NCBI GenBank assembly: GCA_963717845.1
Contig: CAVQXH010000001.1
Span: 1,264,942-1,328,941, forward strand
Source of the DNA: an uncultured Actinomycetes bacterium
GTDB taxonomy: Bacteria > Actinomycetota > Thermoleophilia > Gaiellales > JAICJC01
Length of the DNA stretch: 64,000 nt
Direction of reading: 5' to 3'
Shown here: piece after piece, positions 1 through 52,138 of the stretch
How the letters are laid out: each line of letters opens with the position of its first letter
How positions within the stretch are numbered: the stretch's first letter is position 1
The notes under the pieces: model-generated
What the model was told of the DNA's origin: nothing
What the model saw: only the letters and a program-made list of their open reading frames with translations
Database searches by the model: none
Translations under genes and position numbers: made by a program

Positions 1-781
1 GCGGCTGTCGCGCAGGCTGCGGGCGGCGGCGGCCGCGGCCGAGCAGGTCACGGCGGGGTCGCTGTCTGCCCGGGTGAACGCGCGCGGCAGCGACGAGGTG
101 GCGGCGCTCGGGGCGGCGATGGACCGGATGGCCGACTCGCTGCAGGAACGGATCGAGCACGAGCAGCGGTTCGTCGCCAACGTCGCCCACGACCTGCGCA
201 CCCCGGTGACCGGCCTGGTCGCCGCCGCCAGCCTGCTCGAGCCCGACCGGGTGGGTACGGTCGTGCGGGAGCGGGTGGCGCGCCTGCACACGCTCGTCGA
301 GGACCTGCTCGAGATCTCGCGGCTCGAGAACGGCGCCGTCACCGCCGACCTGCGCTGGGTCGAGGTCGACGCGTTCGTGCGCAGCCTCGTGGCCCGCCGG
401 CCGGGCGTGATCGCCGACGCGCCCGACCCGGCCAGGGCGTTCACCGACCCGCGGCGGCTCGAGCGGATCATCGACAACCTGCTCGACAACTGCGCCCGTC
501 ACGGGGCGCCGCCGGTCACCGTGTCGGTGCGCGGCCGCACCATCGTCGTCACCGACAGCGGCCCCGGATTCGGCGCCGAGATCCTGGAGCGGGCCACCCA
601 GAGGTTCGCGACCGGCGACACCGCGCGCGGTCACGGCATCGGCCTGGGGCTCGCGATCGCCGCCGCGCAGGCGCGCGTGCTGGACGGGTCGCTCACCGTC
701 GCCAACCGCCCCGAGGGCGGTGCGCAGGTCACGGTCGAGCTCTCCGGCCGCGCCCCGACCGAGGACCCGGTCGGCGCATGA
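1..781 (+). CDS. Sensor histidine kinase, C-terminal part (5' end lies outside the window)
   Basis: The frame is open from the window edge to the stop at 779-781. It has an H-box (FVANVAHDLRTPVTG) and HATPase motifs (DNLLDNCARH, DSGPGF, GHGIGLGLAI). Confidence 0.9.
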   Translation, partial: RLSRRLRAAAAAAEQVTAGSLSARVNARGSDEVAALGAAMDRMADSLQERIEHEQRFVANVAHDLRTPVTGLVAAASLLEPDRVGTVVRERVARLHTLVEDLLEISRLENGAVTADLRWVEVDAFVRSLVARRPGVIADAPDPARAFTDPRRLERIIDNLLDNCARHGAPPVTVSVRGRTIVVTDSGPGFGAEILERATQRFATGDTARGHGIGLGLAIAAAQARVLDGSLTVANRPEGGAQVTVELSGRAPTEDPVGA

Positions 782-8937: not shown

Positions 8938-10251
8938 TTGATCTCTCGCTATACCCGCCCCGCCATCGGCGCCGTATGGTCGGACGAGCGCAAGTTCCAG
9001 CGGTGGCTGGACGTGGAGATCGCAGCGATGGCCGCCTGGTCTGACCTGGGTGTGCTCCCCGGCGCCGCGGTCGACGCTGTCCGTGCCCGCGCCCGCATCG
9101 ACGTCGGCCGCATCGGCGAGATCGAGGACCGCACCCACCACGACGTGCTGGCCTTCACCGAGTCGGTGGCCGAGCAGGTCGGCGAGGAGGCCCGCTGGTT
9201 CCACTACGGCCTCACGTCGTCCGACGTCGTCGACACTGCCCTCGCTCTGCAGCTGCGCGACGCGGGCGAGCTCCTGCTCGCCGGCATCGACGCCGTCGAG
9301 CGGGCCGCCGTCGCCCGCGCCGAGGAGTTCCGGCACACGCCGATCATCGGCCGCACGCACGGCGTGCACGCCGAGCCGACGACGTTCGGCCTCGTGCTGC
9401 TCGGCTGGGTGACCGAGCTGCGCCGCCAGCGCGTGCGGCTGGGCGATGCCTTCGAGGGCGTCCGCGTCGGCAAGCTCTCCGGCGCTGTGGGCGCCTACGC
9501 CAACTCCGATCCGCGCATGGAGGCGCTCGCCCTGCACGACCTCGGTCTGGAGCGCGAGGACGTCGCCACCCAGGTGGTGCCGCGCGATCGCCACGCCGCC
9601 CTGCTCTCGGCCGTGGCGGGCGTCGGCGCGTCGCTCGAGCGGTTCGCCGTCGAGGTGCGGCACCTGCAGCGCACCGAGGTGCGGGAGGCGCTCGAGCCGT
9701 TCGCCACAGGGCAGAAGGGCAGCTCGGCGATGCCGCACAAGCGCAACCCGATCGTGTGCGAGCGCATCTGCGGCCTCGCCCGGATCCTGCGCGCGAACGC
9801 CCACGTCGGCCTCGAGGACGTCGCCCTCTGGCACGAGCGCGACATCTCCCACTCCTCGGCCGAGCGCGTCGTCCTGCCCGACTCCACCATCGCCCTCGAC
9901 TACATGCTCGACCGCACCCGCTGGCTGATCGAGGGCCTCGCGGTCGACCCCGAGCGAATGCTGCGAAACCTGGAGGCGTCGCACGGCCTGGTGTTCTCGG
10001 GCCGGGCGCTCCTGCGCCTGGTCGAGGCCGGCATGAGCCGGGAGGCGGCATACGAGCTGGTGCAGCGAAACGCGCTCGCCGCGTGGGACCAGGAGGTGGC
10101 GCTGCGCAGCCTGCTCGAGGCTGACGCCGACGTCGCGGCCGTCCTGACCGCGGCCGACCTCGACCAGATCTTCGACCTCGACGCCCTGCTCGTCCACGTG
10201 GACGAGATCTTCGACCGCACGCTACGACGCCCGGAGGTTGCCCATGCCTGA
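8938..10251 (+). CDS. purB: Adenylosuccinate lyase
   Basis: 437 aa. The sequence YTRP...WSDE.KF..WL.VE, GLTSSDVVDTA and SSAMPHKRNP form the fumarate-lyase signature. The start codon is TTG. Confidence 0.95.
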   Translation: MISRYTRPAIGAVWSDERKFQRWLDVEIAAMAAWSDLGVLPGAAVDAVRARARIDVGRIGEIEDRTHHDVLAFTESVAEQVGEEARWFHYGLTSSDVVDTALALQLRDAGELLLAGIDAVERAAVARAEEFRHTPIIGRTHGVHAEPTTFGLVLLGWVTELRRQRVRLGDAFEGVRVGKLSGAVGAYANSDPRMEALALHDLGLEREDVATQVVPRDRHAALLSAVAGVGASLERFAVEVRHLQRTEVREALEPFATGQKGSSAMPHKRNPIVCERICGLARILRANAHVGLEDVALWHERDISHSSAERVVLPDSTIALDYMLDRTRWLIEGLAVDPERMLRNLEASHGLVFSGRALLRLVEAGMSREAAYELVQRNALAAWDQEVALRSLLEADADVAAVLTAADLDQIFDLDALLVHVDEIFDRTLRRPEVAHA

Positions 10252-40755: not shown

Positions 40756-41586
40756 ATGCTGCCGCTCCTCGCCGCACGGGACGTGTCGGCCGCCTCGATC
40801 GCGGGCGCCTGGCACCTGCGCCCGGCGGCGGCCGTGTTCACGATCCTGGCCCTGGCGGCGTTCGCCCCCGCCTTCGCCCGCGCCCGCCGCAGCGATCCGG
40901 CGGGGGCGCCGTGGACGCGCGCCGCGCTCTTCGCCGCGGGCGTCGCCCTGATGACGGTGCCGTTGTGCTCGCCGCTCAACGCCGCCGCCGAGCGCTATCT
41001 GCTGTCGGCGCACATGCTCGAGCATGTGCTCCTGGCCGACGCCGGCCCGGCGCTGCTCGTGCTGGCCGTGCGCGGGCCGATCGCCCGGGGCATGGCCGAG
41101 CGGCTGCGGCCACTGCGGCCGGTGACCGACGTGCTGTTGCGACCTGGCGTCACGCTCGCAGCGTGGGCGGGCGTGATCGGCCTCTGGCACGTGCCGGCCC
41201 TGTATGACCGCGCGCTCGGGTCGGCCGCGCTGCACAACCTCGAGCATGCCTCGTTCGTCCTCGTCGGGACGTTGGTCTGGATCCAGATGATCGACCCCAC
41301 CGGCAGCGGCCGGCTGGCGCTGCCCGGGCGGCTGGCCTTCACGGTGGCCGTGTTCTTCGCCGGCCAGGTGCTCTCCGACGCGCTCGTGTTCTCGTTCCAT
41401 GCGTACTACCCGGCGTACGCCGATCAGCCCGGCCGCCTGCTCGGGCTCTCGCCGCTCGCCGACCAGCGCCTAGCGGGCATCGTGATGGCGCTCGAGCAGC
41501 TGCTGACGCTGGGGACGTGCTTCGTGGTGCTCCTGCTCCAGCTGCGCCGCGGCGGCCGGCTGCAGCGGGCTGTGATGCGCGCTTAA
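40756..41586 (+). CDS. ctaG: CtaG-like cytochrome c oxidase assembly factor, copy 2 (intact)
   Basis: 276-aa polytopic protein with HMLEHVLLADAGPALLVLA...NLEHASFVLVG..., the conserved His-containing motifs. Confidence 0.8.
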   Translation: MLPLLAARDVSAASIAGAWHLRPAAAVFTILALAAFAPAFARARRSDPAGAPWTRAALFAAGVALMTVPLCSPLNAAAERYLLSAHMLEHVLLADAGPALLVLAVRGPIARGMAERLRPLRPVTDVLLRPGVTLAAWAGVIGLWHVPALYDRALGSAALHNLEHASFVLVGTLVWIQMIDPTGSGRLALPGRLAFTVAVFFAGQVLSDALVFSFHAYYPAYADQPGRLLGLSPLADQRLAGIVMALEQLLTLGTCFVVLLLQLRRGGRLQRAVMRA

Positions 41587-41607
41587 GACTCGCGGCGGCC
41601 ATCATGA

Positions 41608-41743
41608 GGGCCGGTTGAGGCGGCCGGGAATACGTTGGCCGCATGACCGCCGCCTCGCCCGCTCCGGCACCGCAGCGTGACGCAATCTTGAGCCTCCCGG
41701 CCCGATCTTTCAGGGCCGGTTGAGGCGTTCGTGCCTACGTTGG
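41608..41743 (+). promoter_or_regulatory. Three-part leader: duplicated GGGCCGGTTGAGGCG-N8-TACGTTGG elements flanking a complementary GAGCCTCCCGGCCC segment
   Basis: Copy 1 is 41608-41622 plus 41631-41638. Copy 2 is 41713-41727 plus 41736-41743. The complement is at 41690-41703. Copy 2 contains the GAGG Shine-Dalgarno sequence 5 nt before the GTG at 41731. Confidence 0.6.
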
Positions 41744-42375
41744 GGACGATGATTCAGCACGACTCCAAGGCTGGCCGCCGGGCCTCCGCAGAGACGGACG
41801 CGCTCCCCAGCCCGCTGCGCTCGGCCGCTCCGTACGCCGTCATCCTCGCGGCCGCGCCGGTGATGGCGGCGGGGCGTGCCATCACGTGGCGCTGGGCCCT
41901 CGCAATGGCGACCGCAGCGCTCGTCGCCGCGGCAGGTGCAGGTGCCTGGGGCTGGATGCGGCGCGTCATGGTGTGCGACCTGGCCGACCGGTGGATCGCC
42001 ACCGGCGCCGGCGCGCCGCCCGCGGACGCCGTCGTGACGCAGCGCCGGGCGCAGCTCTCGAGCACGCGCGAGCAGCGCATGCTGGCCACGTCGCTGCGGC
42101 GGCTCGTCGCCGCCGCTCAGGAGCCTGCGCGCGTCTCGGCGCGGGTGCCCACCGACCGCCGGGCCGTGCGCGCCGAGGCCGCGGCGATCGAGCGCCTGGC
42201 GGCGCACCTGGCTGATGTGAACACGCCGGTCGAGGCGCGCAGCGTCGCCCTCGTGCACCTGCTCGTCTCCGACGCCGGCAGCCCGCTTTACCGCAATGGA
42301 CAGCCGGGCGGGGAGGACCTGCACCGGCGCCTGACCCAGGTGCTGTTCGAGATCGAGAGAGGTGTGGACCGATGA
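41731..42375 (+). CDS. Hypothetical membrane protein (2 predicted TM segments plus a helical soluble domain), first gene of the kdp transcription unit
   Basis: 214-aa ORF. Its stop overlaps (ATGA) the next small ORF, which overlaps kdpF. I recognised no family. Confidence 0.6.
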   Translation: MPTLGTMIQHDSKAGRRASAETDALPSPLRSAAPYAVILAAAPVMAAGRAITWRWALAMATAALVAAAGAGAWGWMRRVMVCDLADRWIATGAGAPPADAVVTQRRAQLSSTREQRMLATSLRRLVAAAQEPARVSARVPTDRRAVRAEAAAIERLAAHLADVNTPVEARSVALVHLLVSDAGSPLYRNGQPGGEDLHRRLTQVLFEIERGVDR

Positions 42376-42455
42376 ATGATGTGGAGTCAATCGTGCTCAT
42401 GGTCGTCTGCATGGTGGCCATGTTCGGCGTGATCGCCGGATTCGAGCGTCTGTGA
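42372..42455 (+). CDS. 27-aa hydrophobic peptide (MNDVESIVLMVVCMVAMFGVIAGFERL)
   Basis: Hand-translated. It has an ATGA overlap upstream and a TGATG overlap with kdpF downstream. GC3 is mostly G/C. Confidence 0.5.
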   Translation: MNDVESIVLMVVCMVAMFGVIAGFERL

Positions 42456-42544
42456 TGGCCGGCAGCGACATCTTCGGCCTCGTCGTCTCGATCCTGCTCT
42501 TCGTCTACCTCTGCTACGCGCTCTTTCGAGGGGAGAACCTGTAG
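42455..42544 (+). CDS. kdpF: K+-transporting ATPase subunit F
   Basis: Hand-translated as MAGSDIFGLVVSILLFVYLCYALFRGENL, which matches the KdpF pattern (..YL.YAL..). It ends 1 nt before the kdpA ATG. Confidence 0.8.
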   Translation: MAGSDIFGLVVSILLFVYLCYALFRGENL

Positions 42545-44269
42545 ATGACCCTCATTCCCGCGCAGGGGATCGCGCAGATCCTCTTCTACGTCATCGTGCT
42601 GCTGGCGGTGACGCCGCTCCTGGGCTCCTACATGGCCCGGGTGTACGAGGGCGAGGACGTCCTGCTCGCCCGCTGGTTCGGCGTTGCGGAGCGCGGCTTC
42701 TACCGCCTGCTGCGGACATCGCCCGAGGACGAGCAGGACTGGAAGGGCTACGGCACGAGCGTGATCGTGTTCAGCCTGCTCTTCCTGATCCCGCTGTACG
42801 TGCTCCTGCGTGTGCAGGGACACCTGCCGCTCAATCCTGACCACCTCCCGAGCGTCAACGCCGGCGTCGCCGCGAACACCGCCTCGAGCTTCGTCACGAA
42901 CACGAACTGGCAGTACTACGGCGGCGAGTACACCATGAGCTACCTGAGCCAGATGGCCGGCCTCGCGGTGCAGAACTTCATCTCGGCCGCCGTCGGCATG
43001 GCCGTGCTGGCCGCGATGATCCGCGGCTTCGCCCGCCGCGAGACCTCCAAGCTCGGCAACTTCTGGGTCGATCTCTACCGCACGACCGCCTACATCCTGC
43101 TGCCGATCTGCATCGTCACGGCGGCCTTCTTCATCTGGCAGGGCGTCCCCGACACGTTCAGCGGCCACGCGGTCGCGCACACCGTCCAGGGCCACACGCA
43201 GAGCATCGCCCGCGGGCCGGTGGCGTCCCAGATCGCGATCAAGCAGCTGGGCACGAACGGCGGCGGCTTCTACAACTCGAACTCGGCCGTGCCGTTCGAG
43301 AACCCGACCGGGTTCACGAACTTCGTCTCGATGCTGTTCCTGCTGATCATCGGATCGGCAGAGGTGTTCATGTTCGGGAAGATGGTGCGGGCGACCCGGC
43401 AGGGGTGGTCGATCCTCGCGGTCATGTTCATCCTGATGATCGCGGGCGTCGTGATCGCCGCCCCCGCCGAGCAGCACGCATCGCCGGTGCTGCGCCAGTC
43501 GGGCGTCAACATCACGGCGTCGGCCAATTCGCCCGGCGGCAACATGGAGGGCAAGGAGATCCGCTGGGGGATCGCCAACAGCGCTCTTTGGGCCGACGCG
43601 ACGACCGACGCCTCAAACGGCTCGGTGAACGCGAGCCACGACTCGATGACGGCCCTCGGCGGCGCGGTGCCGCTGACCAACATCTTCATCGGCGAGGTGA
43701 TCTTCGGCGGTGTCGGCTCGGGCCTCTACGGCATGCTCATGCTGGTCATCATCGCCGTCTTCGTCGGCGGCCTGATGGTCGGGCGCACGCCCGAGTACCT
43801 GGGCAAGAAGATCGAGGCCCGGGAGATGAAGCTGGCCGTGATCGGCTCGATCTGGGTGCCGCTCGTCGTGCTCGTCCTGACGGCCGTCGCGATGTCGACG
43901 CACGCGGGCAAGCTCTCGATCTTCAACGCCGGCCCGCACGGCTTCACCGAGGCGTTCTACGCCTACACGTCGCAGACCAACAACAACGGCAGCGCCTTCG
44001 CCGGCTACGGGGCGCTGCACTTCTCGACCATGCTCGGCGCATTCGCGATGCTGGTGGGGCGGTTCGTGCCGCTCCTGGCGGCGCTCGCGATCGGCGGCTC
44101 GGTGGCGCTCAAGAAGACCGCCCCCGCGTCGGCCGGGACGATGCGCACCGACGGGCCAACGTTCGTGGTGCTCCTGACCGGCGTCGTCATCCTGCTGCCC
44201 GCCCTCACCATCCTGCCCGCGATCGTGCTGGGCCCGGTGGTCGAGGCACTCACAACGAAGCTCTTCTAG
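42545..44269 (+). CDS. kdpA: K+-transporting ATPase subunit A
   Basis: 574 aa, with TNTNWQ.Y.GE, QLGTNGGGF.N.NSA.PFEN and NNGSAFAG. Confidence 0.95.
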   Translation: MTLIPAQGIAQILFYVIVLLAVTPLLGSYMARVYEGEDVLLARWFGVAERGFYRLLRTSPEDEQDWKGYGTSVIVFSLLFLIPLYVLLRVQGHLPLNPDHLPSVNAGVAANTASSFVTNTNWQYYGGEYTMSYLSQMAGLAVQNFISAAVGMAVLAAMIRGFARRETSKLGNFWVDLYRTTAYILLPICIVTAAFFIWQGVPDTFSGHAVAHTVQGHTQSIARGPVASQIAIKQLGTNGGGFYNSNSAVPFENPTGFTNFVSMLFLLIIGSAEVFMFGKMVRATRQGWSILAVMFILMIAGVVIAAPAEQHASPVLRQSGVNITASANSPGGNMEGKEIRWGIANSALWADATTDASNGSVNASHDSMTALGGAVPLTNIFIGEVIFGGVGSGLYGMLMLVIIAVFVGGLMVGRTPEYLGKKIEAREMKLAVIGSIWVPLVVLVLTAVAMSTHAGKLSIFNAGPHGFTEAFYAYTSQTNNNGSAFAGYGALHFSTMLGAFAMLVGRFVPLLAALAIGGSVALKKTAPASAGTMRTDGPTFVVLLTGVVILLPALTILPAIVLGPVVEALTTKLF

Positions 44270-44286
44270 AGAGGGGCGACATCACC

Positions 44287-44865
44287 ATGCGCAAGGACAT
44301 CATCCGCTCGGCGATCGTGATCGTCGCGAGCACCGTCGTGCTCGGGTTGATCTACCCCGCGGTGATGGTGCTGTTCGGCCAGGTCTTCTTCTCGAGCCAG
44401 GCCAACGGCAGCCTCATCACCCGCAACGGCAAGACCGTGGGCTCGAAGCTCGCCGCGCAGGCGTTCAACGGCCCGCGCTACTTCCACGAGCGCCCGTCGG
44501 CGGTCGCCTATAACGCCGCCGGCACGAGCTTCTCCAACCTCGGCCCGAACGCCAAGGCGCTGCGGACGCTCGTGAAGACCCGGATCCGGAAGATCATGGC
44601 GCTCGAGGGGCCGTACAACCCCGGTCTGACCGTCCACGACATTCCGGTCGACGCCGTTACGGCCTCGGCATCGGGCATCGACCCCGAGATCTCGAAGGCG
44701 TACGCCTACCTGCAGGCGCCGCGGATCGCGGCGGTGCGGCACCTGCCGCTCGCGACCGTCCGCAGCCTGATCACCTCACACGTCACCGGCCGCTCCCTGG
44801 GCTTCCTCGGGGAGCCGGGCGTGAACGTGCTCGAGCTCAACCTCGCACTCGACCAGGAGCACTGA
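44287..44865 (+). CDS. kdpC: K+-transporting ATPase subunit C
   Basis: The ATG at 44287 gives an N-terminal TM, then GSLI..NGK.VGS.L.AQ.F....[19 protein letters not shown] and [10 protein letters not shown]. Confidence 0.9.
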
Positions 44866-46922
44866 TGGCCCGGCAAGAAGCCAAGCTGTTCACGCGGGAG
44901 ATCGTCACCCGCGCGACGATCGACTCGATCAAGAAGCTCGATCCCCGGATCCAGCTGCGAAATCCGGTCATGTTCGTGGTCGAGGTGGGCTCGGCGATCA
45001 CCACCGCCACCTTCTTCATCGACCTGATCGGCGGCGGCGGCCAGGCGCTCTGGTTCACCGGCGACATCGCCCTCTGGCTGTGGCTCACGGTGATCTTCGC
45101 GAACTTCGCCGAGGCGATCGCCGAGGGCCGCGGCAAGGCCCAGGCCGACACGCTGCGGGCGATGCGCACGACGACGCTGGCCACGAGGCGGCGCGACGAC
45201 GGCGGCACCGAGCAGGTGCCGGCCCCCGAGCTGCGGCGCGGCGACATCGTGGTGGTCGAGGCCGGCGAGGCGATCCCCGCAGACGGAGACGTCGTCGAGG
45301 GCATCGGCTCGGTGGACGAGTCGGCCATCACCGGCGAGTCGGCGCCGGTGATCCGCGAGTCGGGCGGCGACCGCTCGGCCGTCACCGGCGGCACCCGGCT
45401 GCTCTCCGACCGCCTGGTCGTCCAGGTCACGCAGGAGCCGGGCAAGTCCTTCCTCGACCGCATGATCGCGCTGGTCGAGGGCGCGGCCCGGCGCAAGACG
45501 CCCAACGAGATCGCGCTCAACATCCTGCTCGCCGGCCTCACCCTGATCTTCCTGGTCGCCGTCGTGACGCTGCAGCCGTTCGCCCTGTATGCCAAGAGCG
45601 GCGTCTCGACGACCGTGCTGATCTGCCTGCTCGTGGCGTTGATCCCGACCACGATCGGCGCGCTGCTCTCCTGCATCGGCATCGCCGGCATGGACCGGCT
45701 CGTGCGCCGCAACGTGCTCGCCCTGTCGGGCCGCGCGGTCGAGGCCTCGGGCGACATCGACGTGCTCCTGCTCGACAAGACGGGCACGATCACGCTCGGC
45801 AACCGCGAGGCCGTCGAGTTCATCCCCGCCCCGGGGGTGGAGCCGCACGACCTGGCCGAGGCCGCCCAGCTCTCGTCGCTGGCCGACGAGACGCCCGAGG
45901 GCCGCTCGATCGTCGTCCTCGCCAAGCAGTTCGGCGTGCGCGAGCACGAGCTCTCGACCATCGAGGCCGAGTTCGTCCCCTTCTCGGCCACCACCCGCAT
46001 GAGCGGTGTGAACATGAACGGCACGGTCATCCGCAAGGGCGCGACCGACGCGGTGCGCCACTTCGTCGAGGAGAGCGGCGGCCGCGTGCCGGCCGAGGTC
46101 GACGCGGCCGTCGATCGCATCGCCCGGGACGGCGGCACCCCGCTCGTCGTCGCCCGCGACAACTGGACGCTTGGCGTCATCTACCTGAAGGACATCGTCA
46201 AGGGCGGCATCAAGGAGCGCTTCGACGAGCTGCGCAAGATGGGCATCCGCACGGTGATGATCACCGGGGACAACCCCGTCACGGCCGCATTCATCGCCAA
46301 CGAGTCCGGTGTCGACGACTTCCTGGCCGAGGCGACGCCCGAGAACAAGATGGCCCTGATCAAGGAGGAGCAGGCCAAGGGCCGCATGGTCGCCATGACC
46401 GGCGACGGCACGAACGACGCGCCCGCGCTCGCCCAGGCCGACGTCGGCGTCGCCATGAACACCGGCACGCAGGCCGCGAAGGAGGCCGGCAACATGGTCG
46501 ACCTCGACTCCAACCCGACCAAGCTGATCGAGATCGTCGAGGTGGGCAAGCAGCTGCTGATCACGCGCGGCGCCCTGACCACGTTCTCGATCGCAAACGA
46601 CGTGGCCAAGTACTTCGCGATCCTGCCGGCCATGTTCGCGTTCACGTATGCGGCCCATCCCGGCGATCACGGGCCGCTCTGGACGATCAACGTCATGAAG
46701 CTCGGGACGCCGCTCTCGGCGGTCACCTCGGCCATCATCTTCAACGCCCTGGTCATCCCGATCCTGATCCCGCTCTCGCTGCGCGGCGTCCGCTACCGCG
46801 CGATCGGCGCCACCGCCCTGCTGCGCCGGAATCTGCTCATCTACGGCCTGGGCGGCATCATCGCGCCCTTCATCGGCATCAAGCTGATCGACCTCGTGGT
46901 GCACAACGTCCTCGGGGCGTAG
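44865..46922 (+). CDS. kdpB: K+-transporting P-type ATPase subunit B
   Basis: 685 aa, with the phosphorylation motif DKTGTIT, TGDNP and [18 protein letters not shown]. Confidence 0.95.
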
Positions 46923-46931
46923 GGTCGGCGG

Positions 46932-48020
46932 ATGCGCGGCCGATTCCGGATCCTGCTGGGTGCCGCCGCCGGGGTGGGGAAGACCTACCGCATGCTGCAG
47001 GAGGGCCGTCAGGCGGCGCTCGAGGGCGTCGATGTCGTCATCGGCTACCTCGAGCCGCACGACCGCCCCGAGACGGCGGCGCTCGCCGAGGGGCTCGAGG
47101 TCGTGGCGCGGCGGACGGTCGAGCACCAGGGGGTGGCGCTCCAGGAGATGGACACCGTCGCGGTCATCCGCCGCGCGCCGGAGCTCACCCTGATCGACGA
47201 GCTCGCCCACACGAACGCCCCCGGCTCGCGCCACGCCAAGCGCTACCAGGACATCGAGGACGTGCTCGACGCGGGCATCGACGTCATCTCCACCGTCAAC
47301 GTCCAGCACCTCGAGAGCCTGAACGACACGGTGTTCGAGCTGACCGGCGTGCGCGTCCGCGAGACGTTCCCCGACAGCATCCTGGACGAGGCCGACGAGG
47401 TCGTGCTGGTCGACCTCTCCCCGCAGGAGCTGCAGGAGCGCCTGCGCGCGGGCAAGGTGTACCCGATGAGCCGGGTCGACACGGCGCTGCAGAACTTCTT
47501 CCGCACCGAGAACCTGGGGGCGCTGCGCCAGCTCGCGCTGCGGGAGCTGTCCGAGGATGTCGAGGCCCGGCGCGAGACCGCAGTGATCGACCCGGCCGCG
47601 CAGCAGGCCATCCTCGAGCGGATCCTCGTCCTGGTCACGCCGCAGCCGAGCTCGCAGCGGCTGCTGCGGCGGGCCTGGCGCTCGGCTCAGCGGCTCGGTG
47701 CCGACATCGACGTCCTGTGGGTGCGCGACCCGGGCGAGCGCCTCTCCGAGGAGCAGACCGTCGCGCTGGCGGCGCTGCGGCGGCTCGCCGCGATCCTGGG
47801 CGCGCACTTCCTCGAGGAGGAGAGCGGCGACGTGATCGCGTCGGTGCGGTCGATCGTGATCGACCGCGGGACGACCTACGTCTACCTGGGCACGCCCGCG
47901 CGCCGCCGCGCCGAGGAGATCCTGCACGGAGCGTTCCTGGGCCGGCTGATCGCCGCGCTGCCGGGCGTCGACATCCGCATCGCAGCCGACCGCGCCCGCC
48001 GGCGGGAGCTGCACCCGTGA
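46932..48020 (+). CDS. kdpD: KdpD N-terminal sensor module (KdpD domain + Usp domain) as a separate protein
   Basis: FRILLGAAAGVGKTYRML.EG...DVVIGY.E.H.R.ET...DELAHTN...RH.KRYQD...GIDV.STVN.QH.ESL is the KdpD N-terminal domain. It ends at RARRRELHP before any TM segment. Confidence 0.88.
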   Translation: MRGRFRILLGAAAGVGKTYRMLQEGRQAALEGVDVVIGYLEPHDRPETAALAEGLEVVARRTVEHQGVALQEMDTVAVIRRAPELTLIDELAHTNAPGSRHAKRYQDIEDVLDAGIDVISTVNVQHLESLNDTVFELTGVRVRETFPDSILDEADEVVLVDLSPQELQERLRAGKVYPMSRVDTALQNFFRTENLGALRQLALRELSEDVEARRETAVIDPAAQQAILERILVLVTPQPSSQRLLRRAWRSAQRLGADIDVLWVRDPGERLSEEQTVALAALRRLAAILGAHFLEEESGDVIASVRSIVIDRGTTYVYLGTPARRRAEEILHGAFLGRLIAALPGVDIRIAADRARRRELHP

Positions 48021-48496
48021 GGCTCGGCCGGCGCCGCACGCCCCAGGCCCGCCCGGGCGCGCCGCGGCTGCTCGTCCCGTTCTCCGGTGGGCAGCTCGAC
48101 CCGGCCGTGCTCGACGCCGCACTTCGGATCGCCCGCGCCGACGAGGCGGTGTTCGTCCCCGCCTACCTGATCATGGTCCCGTTCTCGCTGGCGCTCGACT
48201 CGCCGCTGCGGCAGGAGGTCGAGGTGGCCCTGCCGGTGCTCGAGGCGGTCGAGCTGCACGCCCAGGAGGAGGGGGTGCCCGTCGACGCGCGCCTGGAGCG
48301 GGGGCGGTCGCTGCGCGACGCGCTGCGGCGGCTGTGGGAGGTCGAGAGCTTCGACCGCATCCTGCTGCCCGTCTCGGCCGACGAGCGGGCCGGCTTCGAC
48401 GAGCGCGACATCGCCTGGATCCTGATGCACGCTCCGACCGAGACGCTCGCATTGCGGCCCGCGGCGGGCAGCGTCCGTGCGAGAGTGACGCGGTGA
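48017..48496 (+). CDS. Stand-alone Usp-like protein inserted between the two KdpD parts
   Basis: The GTGA start overlaps the upstream stop. GC3 is high. The sequence LLVPFSGG...FVPAYLIMVP...DRILLPV is a USP-like alpha/beta pattern. Confidence 0.6.
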   Translation: MRLGRRRTPQARPGAPRLLVPFSGGQLDPAVLDAALRIARADEAVFVPAYLIMVPFSLALDSPLRQEVEVALPVLEAVELHAQEEGVPVDARLERGRSLRDALRRLWEVESFDRILLPVSADERAGFDERDIAWILMHAPTETLALRPAAGSVRARVTR

Positions 48497-49905
48497 TCGC
48501 ACGCGCGTACGCGACGCTCGACAGCGCGTCGGGATCGCGCCGCCACGGGCTGGCCGTGGGCGCGAGCGTCGTCGTGCTGGTCGTCGTCACGGTGGCGATC
48601 GGGCTGCTGAAGTCGTTCGTGCCCGTGCTCAGCCTGGGCGTGCTCTACGTGTTCGCGGTGCTGCCCATCGCGGTCGCGTTCGGCCTGATCTACGCGGTGC
48701 TCGTCTCGATCGCGAGCATGCTCGCCTTCAACTGGTTCTTCCTGCCGCCGGTGCACACGTTCACGCTGTCTGACTCGCGCAACTGGTTTGCCCTGGCGGT
48801 GTACGTGGTCACGGCCGTCGTCGTCAGCGGCCTCGCCGCGAGCGCGCGCCGCCGGGCGACCGAGGCGGAGCAGCGCGAGGTCGAGACCGCCCTTCTGGCC
48901 GATGTGGCCGCCTCCCTGCTCGAGGGCGGCGACGTGGCCGCCGAGCTCGGGGCGATCAGCGAGCGCGTGGCGAGGATCCTGAAGGCACGGTCGGCGGCGA
49001 TCGTGCTCGGCGCCGAGCCGGGCCCGTCGCCGACGGCGGCGCCGATCGAGCTCGTGGCCGGCGCCCGCCGGGTCGGCACGCTCGAGCTGGTCGAGGGCGG
49101 CGAGCCGAACCTGGCCGCGCGCAGGCGGCTGCTGCCGGCGCTCGCCTCGCTCCTGGCGGTGGCGGTCGATCGCGAGCGGCTTGCGAACGAGGCGTTCGAG
49201 GCCGAGGCGCTGCGGCGGTCGGACACCATGAAGACCGCGGTGCTGCGGGCCGTCAGCCACGATCTGCGCTCTCCGCTCACGGCGATCCGGGCCGCGAGCG
49301 ACGGGCTCGAGGACGAGACGCTCGCGCTCACCGACGCCGATCGCCGCGAGCTGCTCGACACGATCAGCGTCGAGGTGCGCCGGCTCGAGGGCGTCGTCGA
49401 CAACCTGCTCGCCCTGTCCCGCCTGCAGGCCGGGGCGCTCGCACCGATGCCCGAGGTGTGGACGGTCGACGACCTGGTCTACGGGGCCCTGGCCGATGTC
49501 GGCAGGAGCACCGAGCGGGTGAACGTCTCGGTGCCGGCCGACACGCCGCCCGTGCTCGTCGACGCCGTGCAGGCGCGCCAGATCCTGAGCAACCTGATCG
49601 ACAACGCCCTCAAGTTCTCGCCGCCGGAGAGTCCGGTGAGCGTGCGCGTGACCAGGACGCGCAAGGAGGTGATCGTGCGCGTCGTCGACCAGGGCCGGGG
49701 CCTGCCCGAGAACGAGCTCGAGCACGTCTTCGAGCCGTTCTATCGCGGCGCTCCTGCGCAGGATCAGACCGGCACCGGCCTGGGCCTCGCCATCGCGCGC
49801 GGCTTCGCCGAGGCAAACGGCGGCCGCCTGTGGGCCGAGTCACGCCCGGGGCAGGGCGCCGGCTTCGCGCTCGCGCTGCCGCCCGCGGCCGAGGCCCCCG
49901 CGTGA
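48493..49905 (+). CDS. kdpD: KdpD C-terminal module: DUF4118-type TM region, GAF-like linker and HisKA-HATPase histidine kinase
   Basis: The start is a GTGA overlap. TM region: ..LSLGVLYVFAVLPIAVAFGL.. NWFFLPPVHTF. H-box: SHDLRSPLTAI. N/G boxes: NLIDNALKFSP, DQGRGLP, GTGLGLAIARG. Confidence 0.9.
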   Translation: MIARAYATLDSASGSRRHGLAVGASVVVLVVVTVAIGLLKSFVPVLSLGVLYVFAVLPIAVAFGLIYAVLVSIASMLAFNWFFLPPVHTFTLSDSRNWFALAVYVVTAVVVSGLAASARRRATEAEQREVETALLADVAASLLEGGDVAAELGAISERVARILKARSAAIVLGAEPGPSPTAAPIELVAGARRVGTLELVEGGEPNLAARRRLLPALASLLAVAVDRERLANEAFEAEALRRSDTMKTAVLRAVSHDLRSPLTAIRAASDGLEDETLALTDADRRELLDTISVEVRRLEGVVDNLLALSRLQAGALAPMPEVWTVDDLVYGALADVGRSTERVNVSVPADTPPVLVDAVQARQILSNLIDNALKFSPPESPVSVRVTRTRKEVIVRVVDQGRGLPENELEHVFEPFYRGAPAQDQTGTGLGLAIARGFAEANGGRLWAESRPGQGAGFALALPPAAEAPA

Positions 49906-50603
49906 GCACCGGCCTGATCCTGGTCGTCGACGACGAGCCCCAGATCCTGCGCGCCCTGACCACCAACCTGCGCGGCGCAGGCTACGAGGTCGTGCGCGCG
50001 GCCACCGCGGAAGAGGCGCTCGCGGCCGCCGCCACGCGGCCGCCCGACGCCGTGGTGCTCGACCTGGTGCTGCCCGACGGCTCCGGTGTGGACGTGTGCC
50101 GCGAGCTGCGGTCGTGGAGCCAGGTGCCCATCGTGATCCTGTCGGCGATCGGCGAGGAGAGCCAGAAGGTCGCCGCCCTCGACGCGGGCGCCGACGACTA
50201 CGTCACCAAGCCGTTCGGCATGGGCGAGCTCCTGGCCCGGCTGCGGGCGGCGATGCGCCGGGCGGCGCCGGCGGGCGGCGAGTCGATCGCCGTGGGCGGC
50301 CTCGTGGTCGACTTCGACCGCCACCAGGTGACCGTCGACGGCGTGCCCGTGCCGGTCACCCGGATCGAGTTCGACCTGCTGTCGCTCTTCGTGCGCAACG
50401 AGGGCAAGCTCCTCACCCATCGTACGATCCTGCGCGAGGTGTGGGGCCCGGCCTACCAGATCGAGTCGCACTATCTGCACGTCTACATCAGCAAGCTGCG
50501 GGGGAAGATCGAGCATGACCCGCGCCATCCGCAGTATCTGATCACCGAGCCGGGCGCCGGCTACCGGCTGACCCGCCCGGCGGCCGGCGGCGCGCCGGCG
50601 TGA
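49902..50603 (+). CDS. kdpE: OmpR-family response regulator KdpE
   Basis: The start is a GTGA overlap. The receiver domain is LVVDDEPQI...DLVLPDG.G and the winged-helix domain is THR.IL.EVWGP......HYLHVYIS.LR.K. Confidence 0.9.
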   Translation: MSTGLILVVDDEPQILRALTTNLRGAGYEVVRAATAEEALAAAATRPPDAVVLDLVLPDGSGVDVCRELRSWSQVPIVILSAIGEESQKVAALDAGADDYVTKPFGMGELLARLRAAMRRAAPAGGESIAVGGLVVDFDRHQVTVDGVPVPVTRIEFDLLSLFVRNEGKLLTHRTILREVWGPAYQIESHYLHVYISKLRGKIEHDPRHPQYLITEPGAGYRLTRPAAGGAPA

Positions 50604-50635
50604 CGTTCGCCGCGCGATCTGCGTAGAGTCGGGCG

Positions 50636-51139
50636 GTGCCCGACCTGCAGCGCCTGCGAGCCGACCATGCCGCGGCGGTCTTCGCCTTCGAGGTGGCGAA
50701 CCGGGCCTACTTCGCCGCGTCGATCTCCGACCGTGGCGACGAGTACTTCGAGCGGTTCAGCGAGCGCCACAGCGCGTTGCTGGCCGAGCAGGAGGCCGGC
50801 ATCGGCGCCTTCCATGTGCTCGTCGCCGAGGACGGCGCGGTGGTGGGCCGGTTCAACCTGGTCTTCGGCGAGGACGGTACGGCGGTGCTCGGGTACCGGG
50901 TCGCGCAGCACGTCGCCGGCCGCGGTGTGGCGACGGCGGCGGTGCGCGAGGTGTGCCGGCTCGCGCCCGCGCGGTACGGGCTGCGCACGCTCAGGGCGGC
51001 CACCTCACACGACAATGTCGCGTCCCGGAAGGTGCTGACGAACGCCGGGTTCGTCGCGGCCGGCCCGGCCGACCCGGCCGACCTCGGCGGCAAGCCCGGC
51101 ACCTGGTATCAGCGCGACCTCGTGCCGCCTGAGCCCTGA
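50636..51139 (+). CDS. GNAT acetyltransferase (RimJ/RimL-like)
   Basis: 167 aa, with ..LGYRVAQHVAGRGVATAAV....SHDNVASRKVLTNAGF. Confidence 0.8.
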   Translation: MPDLQRLRADHAAAVFAFEVANRAYFAASISDRGDEYFERFSERHSALLAEQEAGIGAFHVLVAEDGAVVGRFNLVFGEDGTAVLGYRVAQHVAGRGVATAAVREVCRLAPARYGLRTLRAATSHDNVASRKVLTNAGFVAAGPADPADLGGKPGTWYQRDLVPPEP

Positions 51140-51147
51140 CGCCGCGG

Positions 51148-52138
51148 TCACATCGTCGTGGCGATCCGCACCGCCACGTAGGCGACGTAGGAGCCGACGA
51201 TCGCCGCCCCCGCGAGCCTGCCGGCGCCGTTGCGCTTCCCCACGAGCACGAGCGTCGCGACGGTGACCGCGACCATCCAGAGGTAGTCGAGCCCGAATCC
51301 GGCGCCGCCGCGGGCGGCGCTGACGATGACCGCCGGCACGAGGATCCCCATCGACAGGTTGATCGTGTTCGAGTTGAGCGCCTCGCTGACCAGCGCCGCG
51401 CCGCGCCCCGCGAGGCCGAGCCGGATCGCCGTATAGGCATTGGGCAGGCTCGTCAGCGTGGCCAGCAGGAGGAGGCCGACGAGCGGCCGCGGCACGCCCC
51501 AGCGGCCGGCCACGAGCACCGCCGAGTAGACCATGCCGATGCTGCCGGCGATGATCACGACCAGGGCCGGCAGCTCGCGGACGAAGAGCGCCCACGACCT
51601 GCATGGCGCGCCCGGCGGGCGAGGGGGCGCCCGCGACGGCGGCCGAGGCCACCGCCGGGGCGGGCTCGCGGGGCGGCAGCGGGCCGTGGAAGGTCCCTCG
51701 CGCGAGCAGGATCAGGTAGGGAACGGCGCCCGCGGCGAAGACGCCGAGGGCGATCCACGGCTCGACGCCGGCGAAGAGCACGGCTGCGGTCACCGCCGTC
51801 GCAAAGAGCGCGAACGTCCCCTCCAGAGCAAGGGCGGGCCGCTCCAGCCGGACGCTCCCGGCGAGGAGCGCGCTCATGCCCACCATCGCCGCCAGGTTGA
51901 AGATGTTCGAGCCCAGGAGCACCCCGACACCGACCCCGCGCTCTCCGCGCAGCATCGCCGTCAGCCCCGACGAGAGCTCCGGCCCGTCGGCGGCGAGGGC
52001 GGTGAGCAGGCCGAGCACGGCCTCGTGGATCCCGAGCCGGGCACCGAGGCGGTCGAGCCTGCGTGCGAACAGCGCAGACGCGACCAATGTGGCCGCCAGG
52101 GACGCGAAGAACAGGATGAGCGCGACCGGCGTGGACAC
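51148..52138 (-). pseudogene. CaCA-family sodium/calcium exchanger (YrbG-like) with an apparent +1 frame break near 51589-51598
   Basis: The first half (MSTPVALILFF...GSNIFNLAAMVG...) is in the frame of ORF 51005..52138. The second half (WALFVRELPALVVIIAGSIGMVY...LTSLPNAYTAI..NSNTINL) is in the frame of ORF 51148..51558. GC3 switches in the central loop. Confidence 0.7.

Follow-up and report, generated by a model that had tools for sequence, protein, structure and literature searches.

Results

The kdp genes of the window and the reality of D1, U2, and D3

We analyzed a 64,000-nucleotide stretch of DNA, hereafter called the window, from an uncultured bacterium of the order Gaiellales (Actinomycetota, Thermoleophilia; contig CAVQXH010000001.1 of assembly GCA_963717845.1). 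It contains a cluster of kdp genes for the potassium pump KdpFABC and its regulators. In place of a single kdpD gene, three successive open reading frames (ORFs) follow the pump genes: ORF1, ORF2, and ORF3, which we call D1, U2, and D3, respectively. D1 and D3 correspond to two parts of the sensor kinase KdpD, and U2, which lies between them, is a small protein with the fold of the universal stress proteins (USPs) that is near-obligately linked to D1 in the loci compared below. D1 starts 9 nt past the end of kdpB, and, as the preliminary description of this locus had reported, the three ORFs are joined by GTGA overlaps that can be read directly in the sequence (Table 1). The start codon of kdpE (GTG 49902) creates a third overlap of this kind after those at D1/U2 and U2/D3. 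The reading frames of D1, U2, and D3 step 0, 2, 1 (coordinate modulo 3), and this is the mere geometry of an NTGA overlap.

The G+C content of the window is approximately 73%, and because stop codons are scarce at this composition, the mechanically extracted ORFs (45080–48496 and 48334–49905) are longer than the genes called here. The starts at 48017 and 48493 are nevertheless supported by comparison with relatives, in which the overlapping start codon is conserved. In the locus L081, a relative with 82% identity in U2, the gene lengths were identical to those in the window (362/159/470/228 amino acids [aa]), and the same 4-nt overlaps were present. When L081 was used as the reference partner, the ratio of nonsynonymous to synonymous substitution rates (dN/dS) was 0.24 for D1, 0.22 for U2, and 0.21 for D3; the third-position GC of the three genes was 0.96–0.97. 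These comparisons indicate that all three genes are under purifying selection, which excludes sequencing error, and that D1, U2, and D3 are real, separate, functional genes rather than indel artefacts.

D1 and D3 correspond to two parts of KdpD

The alignment to full-length KdpD that the preliminary description had proposed placed D1 on residues 22–349 of the 894-aa Escherichia coli KdpD (44% identity) and D3 co-linearly on residues 402–880, and left U2 unmatched. The break therefore lies in the linker that joins the Usp domain to the first transmembrane helix, at approximately residues 385–400 of E. coli KdpD.

In D1, residues 2–210 matched the KdpD family PF02702 (E 6e-92), and residues 217–362, scanned alone, matched Usp PF00582 with 27.5 bits, which exceeds the Pfam gathering threshold of 24 bits; this region aligns with the Usp domain of E. 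coli KdpD. D1 also matched the structure 2r8r (E 9e-66). Its motifs are intact, namely Walker A (GAAAGVGKT, residues 10–18), Y19, Walker B (D89/E90), and the adenine-coordinating arginine R170, and these residues line up with K37/T38, W39, D109/E110, and R190 of E. coli KdpD. Against the NCBIfam model NF038185, D1 aligned over residues 2–354 with positions 18–373 of 373 and scored 361.9 bits, where the curated cut-off is 550 bits, so that by this comparison D1 is a relative of NF038185 and not a member by the curated rule. The KdpB of the window is 64% identical to E. coli KdpB, and the sequence context of its TGES motif is identical.

The N-terminal domain of KdpD is an atypical serine kinase that phosphorylates KdpB at Ser162 and thereby inhibits the pump, an activity demonstrated with both E. 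coli KdpD and a short KdpD (Silberberg et al. 2024, PMC11018627). Because its motifs are intact, its identity to E. coli KdpD is 44%, and the KdpB TGES context is identical, we infer by analogy with that work that D1 is a putative serine-kinase chain acting on KdpB Ser159. The preliminary description held that the N-terminal module would have to dock in trans to the kinase part; this requirement falls away, since the published module is itself a kinase of KdpB.

D3 comprises a transmembrane region (DUF4118, residues 23–128), HisKA (247–314, with His256), and HATPase_c (357–464), with a linker in the position of the GAF domain. Pfam detected no GAF family in residues 130–262, even at E 10, and the "GAF" of the preliminary description is therefore a label of positional equivalence to E. 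coli KdpD alone. A weak second histidine-kinase-like match to the C-terminal half of D3 was found at window positions 182–742. At another locus (L083:1460–2200), an extra 246-aa ORF between kdpE and kdpF has DUF4118 and a faint GAF_2 match and no kinase domains; it resembles a truncated copy of the sensor part that lacks the kinase.

U2 belongs to a divergent family with a USP fold

The match of U2 to Usp PF00582 (18.3 bits, E 0.0036) was under the gathering threshold, and NCBIfam gave no match, so no curated family captures U2. More than 1000 homologues were found at E ≤ 1e-3; nearly all are stand-alone proteins of about 160 aa, annotated as hypothetical or, at best, as UspA-family proteins. 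When 1.84 billion representative proteins were searched with a profile, 764 clusters were found, mostly of 110–260 aa.

The AlphaFold2 model of U2 had a predicted local distance difference test score (pLDDT) of 87.2 and a predicted template modelling score (pTM) of 0.83, with the order of elements E-H-E-H-E-H-E-H-E. In a Foldseek search against the Protein Data Bank (PDB), the 25 best matches were all USPs (probability 1.0, target-normalised TM-score up to 0.78), including TeaD (3hgm) and the USP domain of KdpD bound to cyclic di-AMP (c-di-AMP; 7ji4). According to the model, U2 has the USP alpha/beta fold, a five-stranded sheet of (beta-alpha)4-beta topology.

Two possible origins of U2 were considered and rejected. 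As a copy of the Usp domain of D1, it gave a non-significant profile–profile alignment (hhalign E 0.33), and as an orthologue of E. coli UspC, an hhalign probability of 2.7%. E. coli KdpD itself contained no match to U2 by alignment. The preliminary description regarded U2 as an extra Usp module of KdpD; the absence of a counterpart in E. coli KdpD bears this out, but U2 represents a distinct family of small proteins and not an additional KdpD domain.

U2 lacks the ATP-binding motif G-x2-G-x9-G-(S/T), of which the first glycine alone is present (G126-F-D-E-R-D-I-A-W-I-L-M-H-A-P-T). The strictly invariant residues of the family are F22, P48, L51, D90, R92, G96, R97, E110, G126, and W134. The c-di-AMP motif described in Firmicutes, (A/G/C)-x-S-x-S-x2-N...(Y/F), is absent both from U2 (P-F-S-G-G-Q-L-D...Y50, with the serine variable in the family) and from D1 (L-V-T-P-Q-P-S-S...W). 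The Deinococcus radiodurans protein lacks this motif too, so its absence does not exclude c-di-AMP binding, and we dropped the motif as a predictor.

U2 is linked to D1 by a conserved overlap

The linkage between U2 and D1 was analyzed from both sides. The D1-anchored scan covered 80 loci from bacteria represented by one genome per species, all of them Thermoleophilia-type metagenome-assembled genomes (MAGs; Gaiellales, Solirubrobacterales, and Conexibacter). The U2-anchored scan covered metagenome contigs, and scored the upstream neighbor in 75 loci with room and a downstream D3 in 58. U2 lay directly downstream of D1 in 76 of the 80 D1-anchored loci, and in 66 of the 80 the two genes shared a 4-nt overlap (35 ATGA, 29 GTGA, and 2 TTGA). 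From the other anchor, D1 was upstream of U2 in 74 of 75 loci, with the 4-nt overlap in 72 of these 74. The loci that conserve this overlap span 42–99% protein identity. These comparisons indicate that the recurrence of the overlap is far beyond chance and that U2 is near-obligately linked to D1. In four loci (L008, L018, L053, and L068), a hidden Markov model (HMM) search of six-frame ORFs detected no U2 in the 3 kb downstream (downstream of position 9100), and these appear to be lineages in which U2 has been lost.

A hydrophobic helix of ~20 residues followed by an arginine-rich stretch was found at the N-terminus of 47 of 63 genome-derived and 44 of 72 metagenome-derived U2 orthologues, counted from the conserved start. 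Judged from the sequence, this helix is a membrane anchor that would leave the USP domain in the cytoplasm. In the U2 of the window and its close relatives, the helix is missing and an arginine-rich remnant is kept.

In two proteins, P0278 (569 aa) and P0228 (538 aa; mutual identity 45%), D1, a linker, and U2 are fused in frame. The linkers are 30–52 aa long and anchor-free. P0278 (L085:8001–9710) lies in a kdpF-A-C-B context, with a 149-aa ORF between kdpB and the fusion gene; at this locus, the only one of the two fusion loci examined, no D3 or kdpE was found within 8 kb. Five further candidates (P0267, P0268, P0221, P0233, and P0256) were rejected as probable frameshift run-ons. Frameshifted or run-on genes also occur in the long-read MAG loci L086, L087, L035, L055, and L058, among which kdpA and COX1 were each found in three pieces and D1 ran on into the U2 frame. 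Such assembly frameshifts mimic fusions, and counts of architectures from these MAGs need care. In the AlphaFold2 model of P0278, built from a mixed alignment, the domains were confident and their arrangement was not, and the rmsd (root-mean-square deviation) between its USP pair and the tandem USPs Rv2623 and UspE was about 18 Å.

The split of KdpD is older than the arrangement in the window

In at least 47 of the 80 D1-anchored loci, from Gaiellales, Solirubrobacterales, and Conexibacter, the gene order was D3-kdpE-kdpA-kdpC-kdpB-D1-U2. In few of the 80 did D3-kdpE lie downstream of U2, which is where the window has its only such pair. In the U2-anchored scan, D3 directly followed U2 in 19 of the 58 loci with room, and the U2/D3 GTGA overlap was restricted to close relatives. 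Because the kinase–kdpE pair is upstream of kdpA in most relatives, the comparison of loci indicates that the split of KdpD is ancient, neither local nor recent in origin; parsimony makes the contiguous D1-U2-D3 order a probable derived rearrangement, seen in a minority of loci. The preliminary description argued for true gene fission instead of sequencing error. The genes are indeed real and separate, as L081 and the dN/dS values indicate, but what separates them is an ancient, already published split. The three-gene layout, which it proposed to look for in relatives, is shared by L081 but only by a minority of loci. D3 was directly downstream of 10 of 20 anchor-less and 8 of 31 anchored U2 genes, a weak trend.

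Neighboring genes and other signals

The features of the operon are listed in Table 1. The 27-aa hydrophobic ORF at its start may encode an extra small membrane subunit or a leader peptide; L081 has a 56-aa ORF in the equivalent position. The pump genes are in the order kdpF-A-C-B (42545–46922) instead of the canonical kdpF-A-B-C. Essentially all of the 80 Thermoleophilia-type loci share the kdpF-A-C-B order, with kdpC before kdpB; the order is C-B-A in one locus and B-A-C in D. radiodurans MP1. As a consequence of kdpC preceding kdpB, the gene for the putative serine-kinase chain directly follows kdpB, the gene for its substrate.

When the whole window was scanned on both strands with Rfam at the gathering score, no family was matched, so that the operon leader showed neither a c-di-AMP riboswitch nor any other RNA family curated in Rfam; tRNAs were not scanned separately. 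A promoter and terminator scan of positions 41500–51500 gave no signal exceeding the shuffle expectation.

Table 1. Features of the kdp locus in the window
Feature	Position	Strand	Evidence and remarks
Small hydrophobic ORF, 27 aa, MNDVESIVLMVVCMVAMFGVIAGFERL	42372–42455	+	Translation; overlaps the kdpF start by GTGA
kdpF, 30 aa	42452–42544	+	29-aa ORF with weak Potass_KdpF match in the equivalent position at L085 and L087
kdpA	42545–44269	+	Pfam KdpA, E 3e-223
kdpC	44287–44865	+	Pfam KdpC, E 3e-64; ATG 44287 after AGAGGGG ribosome-binding site; KdpC of L081 has 192 aa
kdpB, P-type ATPase subunit	44865–46922	+	TGES with Ser159 (= E. coli S162); DKTGT at 304
D1, stand-alone KdpD-N + Usp chain, 362 aa	46932–48020	+	ATG 46932 to TGA 48018–48020; KdpD PF02702, Usp, E. 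coli KdpD and NF038185 alignments
D1/U2 GTGA start/stop overlap	48017–48020	+	Sequence; kept in 66/80 and 72/74 loci
U2, divergent USP-fold protein, 159 aa, anchor-less form	48017–48496	+	GTG 48017 to TGA 48494–48496; fold, D1 linkage
U2/D3 GTGA start/stop overlap	48493–48496	+	Also in L081 and 6 close-relative metagenome loci
D3, membrane histidine-kinase chain, 470 aa	48493–49905	+	GTG 48493 to TGA 49903–49905; DUF4118, HisKA, HATPase_c; E. coli KdpD alignment
kdpE, OmpR-type response regulator	49902–50603	+	Best NCBIfam match KdpE PRK10529, E 3e-69; GTGA overlap onto D3

Discussion

Comparison with known systems

In 140 of 5495 species, a KdpD/Usp chain and a transmembrane/GAF/DHpCA histidine-kinase chain are encoded on separate polypeptides, with the serine-kinase chain typically retained downstream of the pump genes (PMC11018627). 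The supplement of that study lists Conexibacter woesei with KdpE, a chain described as "KdpD domain, Usp domain," and a diadenylate cyclase, and the study also cites a split kdpD in Alicyclobacillus acidocaldarius (Schleussinger 2006, as cited in PMC11018627). The window resembles this class in that the same two chains are broken in the same place, the gene for the serine-kinase chain directly follows the pump genes, KdpE is encoded as well, and the Walker motifs and the target serine of KdpB are conserved. It differs from the class in having a third, translationally coupled gene for a USP-fold protein after the serine-kinase chain, in the pump order kdpF-A-C-B, and in that U2 is followed, across 4-nt overlaps, by the kinase chain and kdpE, which do not form a separate unit. 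D1, D3, and KdpE thus belong to a class that is already described; what is new is the apparently undescribed U2 family and the conserved way in which it is coupled to the serine-kinase chain.

A second comparison is with the short KdpD proteins of Deinococcus, cyanobacteria, and haloarchaea (NF038185 KdpD_non_kinase, "KdpD-like non-kinase potassium sensor"); D1 aligns end to end with this NCBIfam model. D1 is 44–49% identical to the short KdpD of Deinococcus, Allomeiothermus, and Picosynechococcus, and those genes, too, are at the end of the pump operon. In contrast to the window, which also has a KdpD-type histidine kinase and KdpE, these short-KdpD loci (including plasmids) have no U2-like gene downstream. 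The c-di-AMP-stimulated example of this type is the short KdpD of Deinococcus geothermalis (PMC11018627).

Three kinds of USP are also comparable with U2. E. coli UspC, which binds the Usp domain of KdpD (discussed in PMC8214093 and PMC2714519), is, like the proposed U2, a stand-alone USP-fold protein that acts on KdpD through this domain; in contrast to the U2 family, it is encoded away from kdp, is not membrane-anchored, and is not translated together with KdpD. TeaD, among the best structural matches of U2, regulates the transporter of its own operon. The tandem USPs (Rv2623, UspE, and TTHA0350) carry two USP domains in a row, as do the fusions P0278 and P0228, but the Usp domain of D1 and U2 are not detectably paralogous, and tandem packing was not reproduced in the model.

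A proposed role for U2

We consider it likely that the window carries a compact kdp operon with a split regulator typical of Thermoleophilia, in which D1 is the serine kinase, D3 and KdpE serve transcription, and U2 is the dedicated partner of D1. The operon would comprise the small ORF, kdpF, kdpA, kdpC, kdpB, D1, U2, D3, and kdpE. If it acts like E. coli KdpD and the D. geothermalis short KdpD, soluble D1 would phosphorylate Ser159 in the TGES motif of KdpB and switch the pump off post-translationally, and the membrane histidine kinase D3 and KdpE would control transcription. U2 would be made in step with D1 through translational coupling at the 4-nt overlap and would bind D1, most simply as a USP–USP pair with the Usp domain of D1; the binding of UspC to the Usp domain of E. 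coli KdpD makes such a contact plausible, and the natural fusions support physical cooperation of D1 and U2. That most lineages have the anchor suggests a tethering role for U2: in most relatives, the helix would keep D1, by itself a soluble chain, at the membrane and close to the pump. In the lineage of the window, which has lost the helix, U2 would be a soluble regulatory partner.

A more general and more tentative proposal is that U2 could be a previously unrecognized third component of split Kdp regulators, a small, usually membrane-anchored adaptor with a USP fold that is co-translated 1:1 with the serine-kinase chain and recruits or gates it beside KdpFABC. Several observations weigh against U2 as the dedicated partner or tether of D1. 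D1 occurs without U2 in 4 of the 80 loci, and U2 is therefore not indispensable. The U2 of the window has no anchor, so the tether role cannot apply there. The fused proteins come from long-read MAGs, in some of which there are clear frameshift artefacts (P0267 and P0268). The model of P0278 has a pTM of 0.42 and does not superpose on tandem USPs, so that contact between D1 and U2 is something we infer. U2 is not detectably related to the Usp domain of D1 or to UspC, and the USP–USP pairing is therefore an analogy only. Finally, the score of D1 is under the curated cut-off of NF038185 (362 vs 550 bits).

Alternative explanations

Another role that we weighed, and regard as unlikely, is that U2 is chiefly a sensor of a small molecule, such as c-di-AMP or another adenine nucleotide, and informs the serine-kinase chain of the K+ or osmotic status. 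The fold of U2 matches nucleotide-bound USPs and the complex of the KdpD USP domain with c-di-AMP (7ji4). In addition, the first glycine of the beta4-alpha4 loop (G126) is conserved, as is an aromatic residue in beta2 (Y/F50), and the triphosphate motif is absent, a combination also found in the c-di-AMP-binding USP domain of KdpD; the stimulation of a short KdpD by c-di-AMP and the diadenylate cyclase of Conexibacter fit as well. However, Asp28 of the loop is replaced by serine in half of the U2 orthologues, and strictly invariant residues of the family (D90, R92, G96, R97, E110, and W134) are not classical nucleotide contacts of USPs. The lack of the Firmicute motif in U2 and D1 also counts against a sensor, in so far as a motif missing from the D. 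radiodurans protein can count, as does the finding that the window has no match to an Rfam family, c-di-AMP riboswitches included. A ligand-sensing role is possible, if weakly indicated.

A recent split of canonical KdpD in place, after which the N-terminal module and its Usp domain re-associate in trans with the transmembrane kinase and U2 bridges D1 and D3, is improbable. In its favor, D1, U2, and D3 lie side by side with translational coupling in the window and close relatives, and D3 is found somewhat more often behind U2 genes without the anchor. Moreover, the separated N-terminal domain of E. coli KdpD reportedly acts in trans on a KdpD that lacks this domain, in work attributed to Heermann et al. 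in 2003. On the other hand, the layout with D3-kdpE upstream dominates in both orders of the class, and the split therefore predates the adjacency of D1, U2, and D3; the D1-U2 pair is conserved whether or not D3 is close by, and the association between anchor and D3 position is weak. The stand-alone KdpD-N/Usp chains of Deinococcus, furthermore, work without any histidine kinase (PMC11018627).

It is very improbable that U2 is a general stress USP that sits in the kdp operon incidentally and has nothing specific to do with KdpD. Actinomycetota have many USP genes, which often adjoin transporters, and the four D1 loci without U2 would agree with a loose association, but adjacency is near-obligate from either anchor (76/80 and 74/75), the 4-nt overlap is conserved, in-frame fusions exist, and the U2 family was not found away from a D1 context in the loci examined. 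There is practically no chance that sequencing or assembly frameshifts broke a single kdpD into three or that the locus is a decaying pseudogene, for although a G+C content of 73% makes long spurious ORFs and homopolymer errors plausible and some related long-read MAGs do contain frameshift pseudo-fusions, the same genes, lengths, and overlaps recur in independent assemblies, D3 is not adjacent to D1 in most relatives, U2 has no counterpart in full-length KdpD, and all three genes are under purifying selection.

Implications

For annotation, these results mean that loci of this kind should not be "repaired" as frameshifted kdpD genes, and that surveys of architecture limited to proteins annotated as KdpD overlook accessory subunits. 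It was only in 2024 that the N-terminal domain of KdpD was recognized as a serine kinase; U2 is a concrete, testable candidate for the input or tether by which stand-alone short KdpD chains would be regulated and positioned. If the adaptor proposal is true, U2 would replace the tether and the input that the transmembrane/GAF part gives in full-length KdpD, and the anchor-less form in the window and the fused forms would be evolutionary variants of one component. The serine-kinase chain would then have a near-obligate USP partner across Thermoleophilia, a large class of soil bacteria that is abundant and poorly studied.

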